This document shows positions 48,301 through 57,300 of a stretch of 64,000 nucleotides of DNA, one piece after another; within the stretch, counting starts at the first letter, position 1; each line of letters starts with the position of its first letter. Origin of the DNA: Lytechinus pictus (Eukaryota); the NCBI RefSeq assembly GCF_037042905.1, contig NC_087250.1, forward strand, positions 12,774,001 to 12,838,000, written 5' to 3'. Position numbers and translations under genes: made by a program. The notes under the pieces were generated by a model. That model saw nothing but the letters and a program-made list of their open reading frames with translations, was not told the DNA's origin and searched no databases.

Positions 48301-51300
48301 ACCGAGAAAGAAGACGCCCTTCCGAGCCAGACGAGGAGGAAGGCTGGCACGGCGAGATAGACGGTCCCGATGACGAAGGCAGGATGGAGAGAGCGAGAGG
48401 AAGGAGGGGGCAGAGGAGCATGAGTAGGGGAGGGGAGATGTGGGGGATGAGAGGCATGGAAGGGCAGGAGGAGGAACAGGGATACGGGAGCTCTGGAGCC
48501 GATTCGTGGGAGGAGGAGATGAGGAAGTACAAAGCCCATCAGGCAGGGTAAGTAAAACAAAATTTCCTCTGTTCTTTTTGGGGAGGGGAGGGAGAGGCTT
48601 GGGTAACGGATGATCGGGAAAGGGGAAGTACAGTTTGGTTTCACACCCTTTCGCAGGCAGATCTTCTTGGGTCATTGAAGAAGTCCTGTCCAGTGAATGG
48701 CACAAGGTCTGGCTTTGTGGTTGGAAGACTCCAGATCTTGGACAGTGCATGACACTGGTTGTACAATGAAATTAGACATATTTTTTTGTTAAACAAAATG
48801 GCAGCAGTGGGATTGCTTCATTTCAATTATTGAAGGGAGTTATGCTGTTGTTTTTACAGAAACATTTAGGTTTATGTGGTTGTGACGAACCATATCATCA
48901 GGTCATAAAATAGTTACTTGATCTAGGCCTCCAGAGATTATAGATATTCTGAGAAGAGTAACCAAGTATTTTACGAAAAGAAAGCCTTGTGGAACTCCTT
49001 GCCTCATTCTAGTTTATTATTTAAAATTCAATTAATTGGAGATCAGATATAGAAATAGTTTGGTTGATGTGTTGTATGTCACTTTTTGCAGTACTATGCA
49101 TTCCTTCAAAATCTTAAAAAATCTTCACATCTTTTTCATAGTTCTGGAGAAAAAAAACAGTGCTTGCATTTCACAAATAGTTTGATTTTACTTTGCCTCA
49201 GTGAAATTAGTTCTCAGCTGATCAAAACCAATGTTACTTAAATTAAATTGTTGGTGATTGATGAACAATTCCCTTGTGGCTCCTTTAATCCCTTTACTGT
49301 CTCATTCTGACTCTCTCTACCCAGGTTTGTAGATGAAGAATCGGAGGAGGAGGAGATGTCACCCCGTATGGCCGGTGCCCAGCGTGGGAGGGGCAGAGGC
49401 AGGGGCAGGGGAAAGCCCCCTCCTGGTGCCAAACATGTAAGTATGTCACCGAAGTATAATGGTTATAGGCGGGGTTGGTGATATAGTTCTCTCCATTTGG
49501 GAAGGGGTAGAAGACAGAGAAGAAAGTTGGTTGGGACACATGAATATGCAATGAGTGAGCTGATGATGTCATCTACCCCTAATGTTTTTCTATTGGACTT
49601 TATGAAATTGTGTGTACGCAGATTCTGTCCTCCAAGACTGAACTAATAGGATTAATTACCAATTTACACTGTAAGATGATCATTGCTGAAATTTAACTTT
49701 TGCAAATGGAGATAGGTTTCCACTCAAAAATATGAAACAATTATGATGTCATGTAAAAAAAAATAAGAAAAAGGAAAGTAGGGACATGACATCATAATCC
49801 CACCTATTGCATGTTTTTTTTTAAAGGAATGCATATATAACTTTTTACAAATTTATTGCAGAAATTTAAAATTCAATCTTTTCATTATTTTAATGAAATT
49901 TTTTGTTCAATTATATTCTATTTAGATATTATCTTCAACCTTAGGTACCTCTAAGCATGATTTCATCTGTTGATGAATAGAATAAACCACCAGTTTTCTG
50001 TTTAAGAGTAATTCCTATATCCATAATCCCAATTTCATTGTTTATTCCACACAGAGTTTTATCCAAGAGAAATTGAAGAAGATAGCTCTCGCTGCTAAGA
50101 TGAAAGGCAAAGGTCGAGGGCGTGGATCCGGGCCTCCTGGTCCTAAGCCACCCAAAGAACCGATGGGAGAGAAGAAGATGATGCTACATCTCATCTGCAA
50201 ATTTTACCTTGAAGGTCGCTGCAAGAAGGTCAGTTCTCATCTCTCTAACAAGGGCCATTTTCCCATACAGATGCAATCAATATCTGCACTCAATTGCAAC
50301 TTATTGTATCACATTTTTCAGACTTCCAATTACGTTTGAATATACAAGTAATTTTCCTAACTAAGATCTTGGGAAGTAATGAAAAGAAATGTGCACAATA
50401 TTTATAATTGATTTAACTTTTTGTACTTGGTTCATTATAGACTTTCTGCCATGATTAATTGAACTTACATGTGTATACAGGGCCCTTAGCTTTTAAGCAT
50501 TTAGTGTCATGACTTATCTTTAGCCTTAGTTGATCAGTGTTTTATCTTGGAATTGGCAACATTATTTTGTTGGAATTTAATTCTTGCACTTATGGAGCTT
50601 GTGTGGTCATATGGACCGACAGAAGCTTTGATAATTCCATTGCATTGCCAATTAAATAATTTTTATTTCTTATTTTCATTCAGCTTTTTTTTTAAATCAA
50701 AATAAAGATGCCAAGGATGAAAAGGGAGGGTATGTGGTATATGAAGATTTTATTTTGTATGATACAATTTAGTTCTCTTATAGCTCTGCATAAAAAAGAT
50801 GCCTGCCCAATTGACTAATTTGGTCACTATAGTTGAACGGGTTGAAGAAATTATTATTTTGTTAATTGTTATGCATGCTATTATTGTTAACAGGGAGAGA
50901 ACTGTACTTATAGCCACGATCTGACGCAGCAGAGGAAGCAGGAGCTCTGTAAATTCTACGTCAGCGGATTCTGCAATAAAGGAGATACTTGCCTGTACAT
51001 GCATGATATCCTTTCTATCTGTTACTTTATTAAAGAAACCAGGGTCATGTTTTGTAAGGCTCGTAGGGGTTGGCACACCAGGGGGCGGGGTGTTTCACAA
51101 AAATGTTAGTTTAACTAAATAAATAGATTTCAATTAATGCAGAAAATGGATGTTGCCCTTGAGATTGTTTTTTTTTCAGTAAAATGGATCAATATAAATC
51201 AGCACCTGCATAAAATACTGAGGCTTTATATGACTTCATTGTCTGTTTTATTAGGGGCGGGCAAGGTAGCTATTTGGTGTTATTTCATCTCTTTGATGTG

Positions 51301-54300
51301 CAACATTTAATTTGTGGTTAGGAGACATACCATAAACATGGTGCAGTTTCTACTGCATGATTTATTGATGTTCATTATACTATTAAGGTACTTAAATATT
51401 AGTCACATCCACATGTGGGATTTTGTAGTGGGGTTTGAAAGCTGTCATATTAACGTGTACTACCTTTTATTGATGTACCTTAGGCTAACATCATTTGTCT
51501 AGTTTTATTCCATTGTTTGTTTTATTCTTTGCCAGATAGGCCTGTGTTGCTTGCTGCAATAACCCTCACCATGTTATTGCTCCAAGTTGGCACCAAGTTT
51601 CCTCCAAGCTGCCTCTCTCCTACCACTCCGCTCTCCTCACAACCATTCTATCAACTTTATCGGCACCGTTTCCATAGGATTCGTGTCGGATTGGGCCAAC
51701 AAATGTATTTCAAATACAACAATCGGTGTTCTGCAATTTCCATCAGATTATACGTCTTTGAAACGCGGAAAGACGTTCTTGGGGCCACAAGGGACCACTT
51801 TATTTGTGCTAAACCATAAACTCCATCACTATGTCATCTAAATCAAAAATATTCAAAGCAGAAGGAAATGTGCTGCTATTTGAGTTTGATATACGTATAT
51901 AGCTTTAGCGTAGGAGAGATGCAGACTTTTGTTTATTTTCACCTTAGTTTTCTCCTACTAATACAGAGGTGAAAAAATGATTGATTATAGTCCTATGGAT
52001 GTGGATTGATTAAGAGATGGTGGTTTACTAGAAATACAAGAGCACATTTCCTTAACATGGTCCCTTGTGTTTTTGTGTCTTTGGCATTTAGCCATTGTAG
52101 CCATTGCCCGTTGAGCTCGGAAGATCAGGGCGCTGTTCGTGGCGATGAGGAGAGACAGAGAGGAGAGAGGTCAGCCAGGAGAAACGGGGAGGTTGTTGAG
52201 GGGTCCGATATGGACTTAGCTAGCGACGTGGACCAAGACCCATGGCCAGAGCCTGGTCTTCCCCCTTGGGTCCCAACCAAAGAAGACCTAGAGATTGAGA
52301 AAAGACTCTGGTGCTGGATGACCCCGGACCAGTTACCCGATCGTCCAGACCTCGTTGAAGAGCTGGGGACCGCTATCGGGTCCTGGTTCCGTGCCGATCC
52401 CTCAAACATGTACGAAGATGCTCTTGAATTTGCAGAGTATTGGGTCAGGCATGAAATGGGAAAGGTGGAGGCCCAGAAAGAAGCCCTGGGGGACTCCATC
52501 GAACCCGGTCTTGGCGCTTGGGTTCCAGTTCAGGAACCTGCTCTGGAAGACATTGTAGACATTGATCCCAAAGTAATAGACCCAGACAGACCTGGTCCGG
52601 GGTATTATTTCTATACTACTCCTGGGCCCGAGGAAACGGTTCTTCGTTGGGCCTATTTACCAAAGAGCGCCCTCCTCCATGCGCCTGATGTACCTTCCTT
52701 AACTCATAATCTACGTGATTTCCCGTGCAAGTACTTCCATTCAGGATCAGAATGCTACCAAGGCGAGAAGTGCCGCTTCTCCCACGAACAATTGAATCCA
52801 CATACCAAGATGCTTCTGGAGAAGGTATGTAGGAGTTTCGCAAAGGCCTGAATTCACAAAGTTGTTTTTGAAAACCATCGGTAGACTTTATGGTTTGTGC
52901 ATATTTCATCTATAAATTACTGTTATAATTTACTGTGTATATTGACAATAGGTGCTATTGTTACAGTGCCCCCAATGAATGCCTGTTGCCATGGTTAAGC
53001 ATGCCATTTTATTCACGGGTCCACTGTTTTGAAGAGAAGACTCATTAATTCAAATGGACATTTTTCAATATGCATGGTAAATTAAGTGTAATTTATGCAT
53101 GAAATCTGCGCAAACCATGGGTTCAACTGATTGTTTTCAAAACAACCTTTGTGGATTTGGCCCTAATTGTTTTGTGATGATATTCTGTCTTGTTTATCAC
53201 TTCTACAGTCAAAGTCAGCATTCTTTCACAGTACAGTACTTGACATTCAGAGCTAGAGAAATTGGGTCACTAGACCATATCTTATGTGATTGCAGTCAAG
53301 TTTTAAGTTGTGTGTAAACTACTGTCAAAGAAAGCAGACTAGGGGGGCGTTTCATAAAACTGTTCGTAAGTTAAGAGTGACTTTGAGAACGCCTGGTGAT
53401 CCTTTTTTGTGGTAAATGATATTCACCATTAAATGTTCATTGGAGATTATGTAGCACGTAAGAAAGGTCCACCAGTCGCTCTTAACTTATGACCGATGAT
53501 ATTGGAAATTTGTTACAATGAATCTGTAATAGTCAAGATTTGATAAATCACCTGTCAGAAAGAATGAATTATTGAAGCTTTAAAACCGAGACATCCCAGT
53601 CCTACTCGCGAGAGTCCGACTCACAGCGAAAAGGGTTGTAAGATTGTCAAATGGTAACCCATATTGATAATGATGATGATAACATTCAGTTCTTTTATAA
53701 GGCATAACACATAGCTAAGTGTGTCCCCGTACACTTACATAAAATAAAAGAATTAAGTACAAATAAAGAGATGACATTAGAAAGTAAGTAAATAGTGTTG
53801 GGCAGCGAGTTCATTCCATATAGAGACAAATACTTTATTTAGCAAATTCTTCGATTAATGTATCATATTTTTTTCATCCATATTTTTTCCTTCATTTTTT
53901 CATTCCAGTCCCTATCCTCGTTCGATGAGTTTCAAGAAGGTCCCCCACGCTCCCCGTCTAAGACCAAAGGTCTTCTCCCCACCCCTGGGGATACAAGTCA
54001 CATACCATCTTTGCTTGACATTGATGTTCGGCCTCCACAGTTAGAGGAGCCACCTGGACCGTGAGTATCAAAATCATTGTGTAGCTGAGTAATTCCATCA
54101 GGGCCCCGTCTTACAAAGAGTTGCCATCGATATAATCAACCTCAACTATATGAAATCCATCACTGTCATAATTTTTTCTCGTAGGAAATTTGCACAATGT
54201 CCTTTAAAAAGGGGAACACACCATGTAATATATATACATTAGTTTCTATGTTGTGCTCATTTGACAAACAACAGTCAGATAATCTGTTTTGGGGGACAGG

Positions 54301-57300
54301 TGATATTAAAGAAATCACCTTTTTTTCTTCTTCTTTTCTTCCCTCGGATGTCAATTATTGAGCATTTTCTCTGTAGTACTCAATTAATGACAGGAGGTGG
54401 GTATTTCATAAAGCTGTTCGTAAGATACATATGACTTCACGCACGACTGGTGATCCTTTCTTGCGATAAATGATATCCCTGTATAATTGATATATGACCT
54501 AAGAACATGTTCCATTCGTGCGTAAAGTTGTGCGTAAATTTACAAACAGCTTTATGAACCCCCCCCCCCCTGGATTATTCTCAATATGTACCTGTACTCC
54601 CAGCATTTGTAACTTGATATTTTTCTTTCCTTTGTTTAATGAAGGATGTCCTTTTACGGCGCTGAAAATCCTGAGTACGCCGAGCCCCATCAGCAGGGAC
54701 CTGATCAAAGGGACTACCAAGGACAGTTCCAAGACCAGCAAGGAGGACCTGGTCCATACCCAGACCAATATCAGCAGCAACAGCCGTATCCGCAAGACCA
54801 GGACCAATACCAGGACCCGTATGAGATGGTCAATCAGTTTGTGTCTCTGGCCCGATCGAACCACGATCAAGCGCAGAATCGGGATTCCACTCGTCAGTGT
54901 CAAGACCAGCAGGACATGGATTCAAACAGAGGGCAGGAGACCACGCCCTTACCAAGCTCTCAAAGTGAGGACAACTCAGCTAGTTCGGACAAAGGTCAGT
55001 CACCAGTGCCTTGATATGTAATACCCACAAATACCCAGTAAAAATGCTGTTTAAGATTTTTATACAACACTGTTTATTTTCTAACTGTAGTTGTTTAAGC
55101 AGTTTAAAGAAGTGTTTAAAGTCTTAATCAAATTTTATTGTTTTATATTCTCAGAAAATTAAGCATGATTGTTTAAAGTTAGGTTCATATAGTAAAGAGC
55201 GTTGTATGAAATTTCAAACAGCGTCTTTACTGTGTACTTTTAGGCCAAGTAAACACGCTTTCTGAAAGATAACAAAGACAGTGTTCCATCATGTCGTTAA
55301 AAATAGGTGAACAGATTTCCATAGGCCCAATGTGGTTTATGCAAAACAAGACTGATCTGGAGTATGGGGTGAAAATTGCATGTTGTATCACTTTCAAGGT
55401 TCTTCCCTTCTATGGAGTCATAACAATCCAACCCTGATATGGCCTTTGGCCTATTATAAGATACAACTAATTGTACAATTAAAGCATCAAAGGCCAACTT
55501 TTTAGAAGAGGTAAAACCATTGTAAATATCTGTCATAGAGTGCTGTTCCTGTAAGCAATCGACTATGAATATTAAGTATGACTAATTATGTCTTTCAAAA
55601 TTATTCTTCCTCTGCAGAAATTTCTTCAAGTGACTTCCATCCACGTGAAAGAAAGACCCGGCTTCCATCCCCTCCAACAGACAACAGTACTAAATCCCCT
55701 CCCCGAGAAGAAATGGAACAGTCCGGACAGCCAGACACCTCTGCCCCTGCGTCGTCCAGCGCTTCCAGGCCCGTCCAGGGTGAACTGTCCCCCGAGCCGT
55801 CGCCTCCGCAAGGTTCTCCTGCAGGCGAGAAGCCAGAGAAACAGTCCATCCCGGCCTCCATCCCGGCGAAGCAGAAAGCCCTCTTCATGAGGATACAACA
55901 GAAGCAGCATGATGGGAAGGCAGGAAGTGATGTCAATTCAGAGTCAGATGACAATAGCAAGCGTAAGTCATGTGAGTATGAATTACAGTTCACTTTGTTC
56001 ATTAATTGAATAATCGAAGTTGAGACAATACTACATACCAGATTATATAACACCTAGATAGATCCTTGTGATTTGATTGGTTGTTTGAGATCGTTCATTC
56101 TGCCCATTTTGCAATGACGTCATCAACCGTGTAATTTTTTATCCATTCATCGTGCAATTTTGGATCCATACGATTTTGTCCATTGCACGCGCGCACCGAG
56201 ACTGCAGCTACAGGCACCAGCAGTGCGCATGTTGTAATGACGTAACAATCAACAGACCAAACTCGCACTGCTTGAGCATGTTTTGCATCGAAATTCATAA
56301 ATTTCATATGGAAAAAAAAAATCAATTTTTAGGTGTCATATAAACCAAATAATGAATGTTTCTTCATTCGTGCAATGGACAGAATACTTAATTTGGTGAA
56401 AGATGAAATAATGATCCATTCAACTCGGTTAGCCTCGTTGAATGGATCATTTCATCTTTCACCTCATGAAGTATTCTGTCCATTGCACTCATAAACATTC
56501 ATTATTTGTATATTATGCAAAATCGCATTGTAAATTTAATTTGCCTCTTCCAAAATACACTCAGCCAAGGTCTTACAAATTTATCTTGTCCTAAGAGATT
56601 AGACTTCAGCAGAATGTCCTGTGCAAGATGACAAAGTGTTCTGAGCTCACATTATTAAACTTAAGCAGTGTGCAGATATATATTTTTTAGCTAAAGGGAG
56701 AAAGATATTTTCAATAATTAATTTCCTGTGCAGAGTAGGAATTATTCAACCCACAAGGGGAGAAATACCATTCCCTATATACCTTCAATAATGTCATAAA
56801 CTTTCAATGTCCATTCATTTGTTTTACTTGCAGCTCAAGACGAGGCCCTCTGGTATTCAAGTGATGAAGAGGAACGAGCTAAGAAGAAAAGCACCTCTGC
56901 CAAGAAGATGAACGAGCCAGTCATAATCCCTAAGGATTCTGCAGAAAAAACGTCAGATCCAGGACTTCCTGCTGGCACTGGTATGAGCTCTGATGCTGTC
57001 AAGAAACTGACTGCCATCCAAATCCCAAGTGCTCTCGCCAATCTCTTCGCTGGAAAGACCACGCCCACAACCCCGTCGAGTTCTGGTAACCAGGTGACTT
57101 TTAATCTTCTTGATTTTGTCAAGAAGGGACCTGCAGCATCCAAACCCGCCCCTCTGACTCCTACTTCACCTCAGACAGAAATCTTGGACTCTCCTATGTC
57201 ACCGATCAATGAGGAGTTTAGGTTGATTGAATGTATTCGTGAACCAGGTAGACCAGACCCTCGTTCAGGGAGGGAGAAAAGGGACAAGTCTGATATGCGT

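Follow-up and report, generated by a model that had tools for sequence, protein, structure and literature searches.

A conserved reading frame within the AT-AC intron of a ZC3H4-like gene of Lytechinus pictus, and an overlapping major-type intron that may bring it into the protein

The window analysed here, a stretch of 64,000 nucleotides of Lytechinus pictus DNA, carries a gene that is approximately 100% identical over all its exons (by tblastn) to the Lytechinus pictus protein model XP_063957008.1 ("ZC3H4-like isoform X1"). It encodes three tandem C3H1 fingers of KIAA1064-like type, which place it in the ZC3H4/ZC3H6/ZC3H8 family, and NCBI names it ZC3H4-like: finger 1 is visible in frame at 50196-50228, finger 2 matches zf-CCCH families, and finger 3 corresponds to Pfam family zf-CCCH_9 ('KIAA1064-like') with an E-value of 2.1e-10. 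The introns of the gene are rich in repeats. Between the exons carrying fingers 2 and 3 lies an intron of the U12, AT-AC type, for which the 5' splice site consensus is /ATATCCTT (the slash marking the start of the intron); the 5' splice site found here, ATATCCTTT at 51006-51014, fits this, and the last A of TTCCTTAAC (52695-52703) falls 12 nt before the end of the intron, within the roughly 10-15 nt expected for a branch site. RNA was mapped from four of 23 sequencing runs (X1, X5, X21 and X22; runs X1-X20 are only presumed to be RNA), and the joint 51005->52715, with ends AT..AC, is present in all four, at contig depths of 40.2 in X1 and 162.6 in X5 and with 4 reads in X21 and 6 in X22. The intron really is a minor intron, spliced in RNA, as a first-pass annotation made from the sequence alone had supposed.

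That annotation had also drawn attention to a stop-free, GC-rich frame late in this intron, and what it said of the sequence itself holds good. Of all stop-free stretches in the six frames of the window, 51991-52851 is exceeded in length only by the 725-codon last exon; 241 of its 286 codons (51991-52713) are intronic, and GC content over 52000-52750 is 0.51-0.56, as against 0.30-0.44 on either flank. The translation contains all three of the peptides that had been picked out (PEPGLPPWVP, IEPGLGAWVP and MYEDALEFAEYWVRHEMGKVE) and then continues V-P-S-L-T-H-N-L-R-D-F-P-C-K-Y-F-H, the frame passing through TTCCTTAAC and then the AC that closes the intron (52713-14) before it enters zinc finger 3, which agrees with the proposed dual coding of the splice signal, the branch site being read as P-S-L-T. 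An ATG is indeed present in frame at 52210 (TCCGATATGG), with G at both -3 and +4. The description of the frame as 'hidden', on the other hand, has to be withdrawn, NCBI isoform X1 already containing it. When the 207-codon part of the frame that is discussed below was shuffled by mononucleotides it stayed open in 2 of 20000 trials, while no random sequence out of 20000 matching the upstream intron in composition did so. GC content by codon position follows the order GC1>GC3>GC2, as in most other exons of the gene, and the RNA reads differ from the window at 6 places within the frame, 3 of them amino-acid changing, at columns that are variable among relatives. The features of the locus are collected in Table 1.

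Table 1. Features around the AT-AC intron of the ZC3H4-like gene (positions within the window; a slash marks a splice junction).
Feature	Position	Strand	Basis
Constitutive exon, end of CCCH finger 1 and finger 2 (GENCTYSH...CKFYVSGFCNKGDTCLYMH; last base G, phase 1)	50894..51005	+	Translation; Pfam zf-CCCH; tblastn of XP_063957008.1; RNA joints 50226->50892 (cut +2) and 51005->52715
Putative GT-AG intron (U2 type) giving the long isoform; weak donor CT/GTACAT; 3' region with TTCCTTAAC (52048-52056), T-rich tract and AG 52090-91	50995..52091	+	RefSeq junction GDTCL/HCSHC; frame logic; X22 depth edge near 52092
U12-type AT-AC intron, 1709 nt; 5' end ATATCCTTT, TTCCTTAAC at 52695-52703, AC 52713-14	51006..52714	+	Sequence and RNA joint
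Stop-to-stop open frame, 286 codons	51991..52851	+	Six-frame ORF listing of the window
Probable alternative coding extension of the finger-3 exon: 207 codons plus split codons, pI 4.3, 8 Trp, 43 Asp+Glu	52092..52714	+	Identity with XP_063957008.1; sense-strand RNA depth; GC1>GC3>GC2; composition
Conserved core of the putative orphan domain, 168 aa from an invariant Met; motifs WPEPGLPPWVP, RLWCWMTP, GSWFR, NMY.DA..AEYW.R, GLG.WVPV, PDRPGPGY.FY..PGP, L.WAYLPK.AL.	52210..52713	+	Alignments at 98%, 76% and 51% identity
Dual-coded stretch: U12 branch site, spacer and AC, also encoding S-L-T-H-N-L-R	52695..52716	+	Sequence and alignment
Constitutive finger-3 exon (DFPCKYFHSGSECYQGEKCRFSH...LLEK), donor GTATGT	52715..52824	+	Pfam zf-CCCH_9, E 2.1e-10; joints 51005->52715 and 52822->53907 (cut +2)

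In XP_063957008.1 and its L. variegatus counterpart the insert comprises 207 codons and is entered by the join ...GDTCL/HCSHC..., three RefSeq models from these two Lytechinus species (P0007, P0009 and P0010) carrying both insert and junction; RefSeq XP models are computed rather than experimental. In other urchins the searches made found the insert only as unnamed fragments, never within a full-length model. For annotation the gain is modest, RefSeq already including this exon in Lytechinus. The GDTCL/HCSHC join implies a GT-AG intron running from 50995 to 52091, the GT donor of which lies 11 nt upstream of the AT donor and inside finger 2, where LYMH is replaced by LHCSHC. At its other end, beyond a second copy of TTCCTTAAC at 52048-52056, AG acceptors at 52090-91 and 52099-52100 (the second also in frame) would start the exon at 52092 or 52101. 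Frame is kept, and remains open through the finger-3 exon, only by the cognate pairs GT50995-AG52091/52100 and AT51006-AC52714; crossed pairs of donor and acceptor stop at once, as does full retention, which stops at 51107. The suggestion in the first-pass annotation of an isoform with a domain inserted between fingers 2 and 3 therefore stands in part. RefSeq models in two species support it, and AG acceptors do exist at the exon starts that it had guessed, but the AT donor joined to 52092 or 52101 is out of frame and meets a stop after 7 or 4 codons respectively, so that insertion needs a separate GT donor at 50995; moreover, the joints listed for X1, X5, X21 and X22 (15 of 30) do not include 50994->52092. 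Taking all the evidence together, the frame is probably real coding sequence, namely an alternative extension, 207 codons long (52092-52714), at the 5' end of the finger-3 exon, arising from a shifted U2/U12 "twintron".

Sense-strand transcription of the frame is clear, though weaker than that of the exons. In X22 the same-strand depth is 5-6 over the frame, compared with about 10-19 in exons, and falls to zero over 51128-51973; in the bin 51974-52114 it is 0.81, which is the value expected if a depth of 5 began at approximately 52092. The two neighbouring introns show zero or near-zero depth outside repeats. In X1 and X5 the frame occurs unspliced, within a retained intron whose depth is some 12-15% of that of the exons, since the contigs concerned (51921-52179 in X1 and 51468-52744 in X5) are unbroken across 52091/52092 and 52714/52715, and much of the upstream intron is covered to the same depth as the frame (51025-52091 being covered in pieces). 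These unspliced contigs suit a different reading, in which the frame would reach cytoplasmic RNA only because the minor intron, being slow, is retained, or through an intronic start, an internal ATG (52210 or 52057) then giving an N-terminally truncated protein that lacks fingers 1 and 2 but has the orphan domain followed by finger 3 and the C-terminal tail. The invariance of Met 52210 in 11 of 11 sequences and the G residues flanking its codon would fit with this, as would the stop at 51107, which prevents upstream translation from reading in, and the lack of the GT-AG joint among the 15 of 30 listed. Nevertheless such a reading seems unlikely: conserved residues continue for about 20 positions ahead of the Met, where E20, G24, E25, R26, R29, R30, G32, G37, S38 and D39 are kept between relatives 51% identical, X22 is devoid of reads over 51128-51973 at a frame depth of 5-6, the three RefSeq models join the insert to finger 2, and a retained-intron mRNA would meet a stop early in a lengthy 5' part.

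Whichever way the frame is entered, comparison with relatives suggests that it is a real, conserved protein-coding stretch. It is unbroken in all the relatives found, which lie at 96-98%, 74-76% and 51% identity and all read in frame into finger 3; over the 168-residue core the identities to the window are 98% for L. variegatus, 76% for the Logan cluster P0013 and 51% for the ENA cluster P0004. Differences in length amongst them are always of whole codons, and all 11 aligned sequences continue into finger 3 and keep, with the same spacing, the P-[ST]-L-T and Arg of the dual-coded stretch. For finger 3 itself, a count on the alignment gives identities of about 81% and 64% in the 76% and 51% relatives, and the divergence of the insert only slightly exceeds that of this adjacent finger. 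The relatives amount to just three clusters, all in frame with finger 3, no further ones being found among 1.84 billion representatives or in word-indexed searches of a collection of 5.8 billion clusters, while of 278 pattern matches in metagenome contigs 0 were confirmed by tblastn.

These comparisons bear heavily on two further readings. According to one, the frame is untranslated, being open by chance or held by some constraint at the level of RNA or DNA (for example minor-intron splicing enhancers), and the RefSeq isoform is an artefact of modelling; the want of a known family or a confident fold, and of a junction directly seen among the joints listed, would be in keeping with this, and beside these points must be set the fact that no RNA family was found either (Rfam gave 0 matches over 49000-55000). 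A frame that is still open at 51% amino-acid identity, with indels of whole codons, invariant blocks of Trp, Pro, Gly and aromatic residues, and a divergence little above that of the adjoining finger, makes it very improbable, the more so as the shuffling tests speak against chance and the codon-position GC pattern resembles that of most exons of the gene. The other, that a transposon-derived or captured foreign ORF landed in the intron, as the GC content of the frame and the abundant repeats in the introns of the gene might lead one to wonder, is hardly credible, since every relative found has the frame in the same place ahead of finger 3, no other copies occur in the annotated Lytechinus proteomes of the collection searched, no direct or inverted repeats, TIRs included, touch or flank the frame, it has no transposase or viral Pfam domains, and its RNA depth is at the level of a single-copy gene, unlike that of the repeats at 53243-53524.

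As to what the frame encodes, the first-pass annotation did not recognise the domain, and nor did the searches made here. Pfam yielded no family for the insert of the window (the best E-value among 4 members being 0.097), a sequence profile gave 0 matches at E<=10 in the PDB, no fold match was found for the insert, and the ESM Atlas gave no usable match. AlphaFold2 predictions from 4 and 11 sequences had mean pLDDT values of 48.1 and 42.1 respectively, i.e. low confidence, and agree with one another only in the order of their secondary-structure elements. A homology to TPR repeats was considered, having been reached from P0005 (E 5e-9) and P0006 (E 7e-8) through 7-8 repeated short matches, and was rejected: the identity of 31-38% is confined to a single 42-residue unit, the 51% relative does not keep the first half of that match (PDRPDLVEELG), and there is no TPR match in Pfam. 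On present comparisons, then, the insert looks like an acidic, Trp-rich orphan domain, with neither known relatives nor a reliable fold prediction.

If the frame is indeed an alternative extension of the finger-3 exon, two overlapping introns would compete for the same pre-mRNA. Removal of AT 51006 .. AC 52714 by the minor spliceosome gives a compact protein with three fingers, which is the predominant form in the RNA that was examined. The major spliceosome, we infer, would instead pair the weak GT donor at 50995 with AG 52091, following the branch-like TTCCTTAAC and a T-rich tract, and in so doing would delete the U12 donor and leave the U12 branch site and AC stranded in the exon, there to be read as ..P-S-L-T-H-N-L-R... 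In the long product (RefSeq isoform X1) finger 2 would then end C-L-H-C-S-H-C in place of C-L-Y-M-H, and the acidic, Trp-rich insert would stand between fingers 2 and 3, where it might re-space or disable the tandem CCCH RNA-binding module or add a protein-binding surface. A much bolder version can be put forward, although as a whole it must be considered rather doubtful: that direct competition of the major and minor spliceosomes at a shifted twintron acts as a switch by which the RNA-binding zinc-finger module of ZC3H4, a subunit of Restrictor, gains or loses an orphan domain restricted to echinoderms, that minor-spliceosome activity varying with stage or tissue sets the form of a transcription-termination factor, and that double selection (for a splice signal and for an invariant P-S-L-T..R) has acted on the branch site and 3' end of the minor intron since before the 51%-identical lineages split.

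Were both forms made and working, the choice of spliceosome would rewrite the nucleic-acid-binding core of a conserved termination factor rather than simply reduce its dose. The locus offers in addition a clear case in which protein is also encoded by a U12 branch site and 3' splice site, and a conserved 168-residue domain that is uncharacterised and has no known relatives; Lytechinus is a tractable animal for such work, as its embryos can be injected and its snRNAs blocked. A search of the literature found no paper linking ZC3H4 with a minor intron, and, judged by titles and the beginnings of abstracts, none on this gene within the literature on sea urchin U12-type introns.

Several known systems invite comparison. 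ZC3H4 and WDR82 form the 'Restrictor' transcription-termination complex (PMC10760643); vertebrate ZC3H4, as described in the accessible part of that source, has three C3H1-type zinc fingers, as in the urchin, with no mention there of an insert between them. ZC3H8, which is paralogous to ZC3H4 and ZC3H6, appears in a list of human genes that contain U12-type introns (PMC1874599 Table 1). When the minor-spliceosome protein SCNM1 is lost, the canonical ZC3H8 transcript declines and alternative splicing yields a shorter variant of the protein (PMC12750831), so that protein form in this family already depends on minor splicing. However, the accessible account describes no inserted domain in ZC3H8, and the effect is that of a disease state rather than a normal isoform. 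The U12/U2 hybrid intron of JNK2, where incompatibility of the sites enforces mutually exclusive exons (PMC1874599), resembles the present case in offering an either/or choice, enforced in the urchin gene by the loss of frame in crossed pairs, but JNK has two alternative exons and an unspliceable hybrid intron, whereas the urchin gene would have two complete overlapping introns. Closest are the U2/U12 twintrons collected by Janice, Jakalski and Makalowski in 2013 (PMC3564746), in which a U2-type intron is alternatively spliced at the same position as a U12-type intron, and which include Drosophila prospero and 18 human genes, amongst them HNRPLL, ZNF207 and CTNNBL1, the table of these 18 containing no ZC3H gene. 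'Shifted' arrangements like that proposed for the urchin gene, with both U2 sites upstream of the U12 sites, are described in that work, and in prospero the choice alters a nucleic-acid-binding protein by 29 amino acids. The urchin case, its U2 junction coming from computed models only, would differ in that the long form reads the U12 branch site and 3' end as codons, and in that the U2 choice both adds a conserved orphan domain of 207 amino acids and rewrites the region of a zinc finger's last ligand.

The host gene lies on the + strand at ~38.9-59 kb, its exons being ~100% identical (tblastn) to XP_063957008.1, which NCBI names 'zinc finger CCCH domain-containing protein 4-like isoform X1 [Lytechinus pictus]'. 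The stop-free frame claimed by the first-pass annotation is indeed present, running stop to stop over 286 codons (51991-52851); it is GC-rich as had been described (0.51-0.56 vs 0.30-0.44 around it), and all of the peptides then quoted are found in its translation. What did not hold is the description of the frame as hidden, as the insert, i.e. the 207-codon part (52092-52714) that extends the finger-3 exon in the 5' direction, is already annotated in the RefSeq ZC3H4-like isoform X1 models and is hence not new as annotation. Its openness exceeds chance (shuffling the insert's own letters 20000 times left it open twice, and 0 of 20000 random sequences with upstream-intron composition were open), and its GC at codon positions 1, 2 and 3 is 0.66, 0.45 and 0.51, high at the first position as in most other exons of the gene. 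That the insert is protein-coding is close to certain. On the - strand, 134 codons opposite the insert (52125-52529) are likewise free of stops, as is common for the complement of GC-rich coding sequence; raw reads there are in sense orientation only.

In a word-indexed search of longer proteins the sole match was an L. variegatus ZC3H4-like isoform X1 (1638 aa, 96% identity over the whole query); the NCBI models in its cluster number four, with L. variegatus and L. pictus contributing two each (one of the L. pictus pair dates from an older annotation). All three models whose sequence was inspected contain the insert with the join ...CNKGDTCL/HCSHCPLSS..., implying for the window a GT donor at 50995 (CT/GTACAT), 11 nt upstream of the U12 AT donor at 51006, and the AG acceptor at 52091. 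When pieces of the window were spliced by script to see which donor/acceptor pairs stay open, the frame was preserved by GT50995 with AG52091 or AG52100 and by AT51006 with AC52714, crossed U2/U12 pairs met a stop within a few codons, and full retention of the minor intron, translated in silico, ended at 51107. The two AG acceptors, 9 nt apart and both in frame with the GT donor, give products differing by H-C-S; RefSeq uses the first. Finger 2 ends in C-L-H-C-S-H-C in this long form, as against C-L-Y-M-H in the compact, AT-AC spliced form, and one may speculate that the His four residues after the third Cys could still act as a finger-2 ligand.

Positions in the window of exons, splice signals, related words, repeats and residue-changing differences
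Feature	Position	Strand	Remarks
Finger-2 exon	50894-51005	+	
Minor intron	51006-52714	+	starts ATATCCTTT; TTCCTTAAC at 52695-52703; ends AC
Second TTCCTTAAC	52048-52056	+	then T-rich tract, AG 52090-91, AG 52099-52100
Finger-3 exon	52715-52824	+	
Minor-intron 5'-site or branch-site word ATATCCTT	24691; 40306	+	exact matches
Further minor-intron word GTATCCTT	23105	+	exact match
TTCCTTAAC elsewhere	38877	+	exact; ~70 nt upstream of first coding exon
TTCCTTAAC elsewhere	25914	-	exact
Downstream-intron repeats	53243-53524; 54089-54200		head like GGGGGCGTTTCATAAA
Further repeat pieces	53341-53422 / 54395-54476		
Inverted repeat arms	54391-54423 / 54540-54572		
Similar repeat head GGGGGCGGGGTGTTTCACAAAAATGTTAG	~51075-51105		inside minor intron
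Q12E	52126		E in reads of 3-4 runs
G123E	52460		E in reads of 3-4 runs
Y172H	52606		H in reads of 3-4 runs

A HMMER search of 1.84 billion representatives returned three matches at E<=0.001, one of them a true relative, P0004 (E 4e-50, 51% identity; a three-member cluster from ENA contigs). Of two profile searches, one brought in the cluster P0013 (nine Logan proteins at 74-76% identity) and the other, among longer proteins, gave nothing beyond the Lytechinus model and P0004. The frame, whose integrity in relatives had been proposed as a check, continues through V-P-[ST]-L-T-x-x-x-R into the (D/E)FPCKY of finger 3 in 11 of 11 aligned sequences, among which indels are whole codons and the Trp, Pro, Gly and aromatic motifs of the insert are invariant. 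Since identity in the P0013 and P0004 relatives is 76% and 51% for the insert and ~81% and ~64% (hand count) for finger 3, the insert evolves only slightly faster than a constitutive functional exon. Its first ~45 residues (52092 to ~52225) form a fast-evolving charged linker, holding six of the nine differences between two Lytechinus models.

RNA was mapped on 50000-54200 in four of 23 listed runs, namely the contig sets X1 and X5 (the latter from a related organism) and the raw-read sets X21 and X22. All four show the AT..AC joint 51005->52715 (contig depth 40.2 in run X1 and 162.6 in X5; 4 reads in X21 and 6 in X22), which proves the U12 intron genuine and the main route. RNA over the frame has the orientation of the exons, and adjacent introns have zero or near-zero depth outside repeats. 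In X22 the frame has depths of 6.1, 6.1, 3.7 and 5.1 (four bins, 52115-52678) vs ~10 in upstream exons and 19 downstream; in X21 it has 0-1.6 vs 1.2-3.7 for comparison. X22 has no reads over 51128-51973 and a value of 0.81 in the bin 51974-52114, by our own arithmetic equal to a depth of 5 beginning at ~52092, a step consistent with an exon starting at that point. The minor intron is clearly also retained: runs X1 and X5 contain the frame as retained intron at ~12-15% of exon depth, in unspliced contigs passing through both acceptors (51921-52179 and 52159-52744 in X1, depth 5-7 vs 40-58; 51468-52744 in X5, 22.8 vs 120-163), and other contig pieces cover the upstream part of the intron. The GT-AG joint 50994->52092 was absent among the 15 of 30 joints listed (four runs, 50000-54200). 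Public models and one coverage edge support the insertion isoform, with a putative GT-AG junction.

Within the frame, reads of several runs share six departures from the window sequence, three of them synonymous. Two of the three residue changes agree with all other aligned species, E123 only with the L. variegatus and older L. pictus models, both of which have E, E and H at the three sites; the assembled haplotype seems to hold the minority alleles. For the related organism (X5), 14 differences were listed in the exons on either side of the frame, 13 of them at third codon positions.

Mid-way in the minor intron lies a C-rich block (51468-51850; GC 0.43, GC skew -0.17 to -0.30) containing open frames of 111 and 92 codons that overlap one another; contigs of both organisms start near its edge (51468 in X5, 51501 in X1), and the raw-read runs have no depth within it. 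Transcription might start here internally, or the block might act as an element controlling splicing. The downstream-intron repeats are covered on both strands, up to a depth of ~29000 in run X1 and by raw reads in the hundreds, and show many 'opposite strands' joints; they look like an abundant SINE/MITE-like family.

The insert itself (207 residues, pI 4.3, 8 Trp, 23 Pro) gave no Pfam family, no match to PDB sequences or the ESM Atlas and no Rfam family, and no repeats were found around it. Two AlphaFold2 runs were of low confidence (48.1 and 42.1) and agree only in element order: helix, strand (RLWCW), helix, strand (GSWFR), long helix (NMYEDALEFAEYWVRHEMGKVEAQKEA) and beta hairpin (GYYFYT / VLRWAY). 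The remaining two HMMER matches are long TPR/CHAT repeat proteins, one 42-residue unit being matched many times at 31-38% identity, and the stretch MTPDQLPDRPDLVEELGTAIGSWFR.. (52309-52428, insert residues 73-112) resembles a single TPR unit. Homology was rejected because P0004, the relative at 51% identity, has not conserved the half that matches, and the resemblance is probably convergence.

In the mechanism we propose, the major and minor spliceosomes would compete for one pre-mRNA. Were U11/U12 to bring the AT donor and the distal branch site together, everything between would be removed, giving the compact three-finger module; were U1/U2 instead to take the weak GT donor with the proximal TTCCTTAAC, T-tract and AG, the AT donor would leave with the intron, so that the distal U12 signals, now partnerless, would remain in the mRNA as codons. 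The acidic insert and rewritten finger 2 may alter how the protein binds RNA or provide a surface for a partner; in vertebrates, ZC3H4 and WDR82 make up the Restrictor termination complex, of which ZC3H4 is the RNA-binding subunit (PMC10760643). Two further papers concern the human paralogue ZC3H8, which is listed as a U12-intron gene (PMC1874599) and, in the absence of the minor-spliceosome protein SCNM1, produces a shortened variant of its protein (PMC12750831). The table of 18 human twintron cases in PMC3564746 includes no ZC3H gene. The arrangement proposed here corresponds to the 'shifted twintron' defined in that paper: a putative U2/U12 twintron, of a kind already known, that carries an orphan domain.
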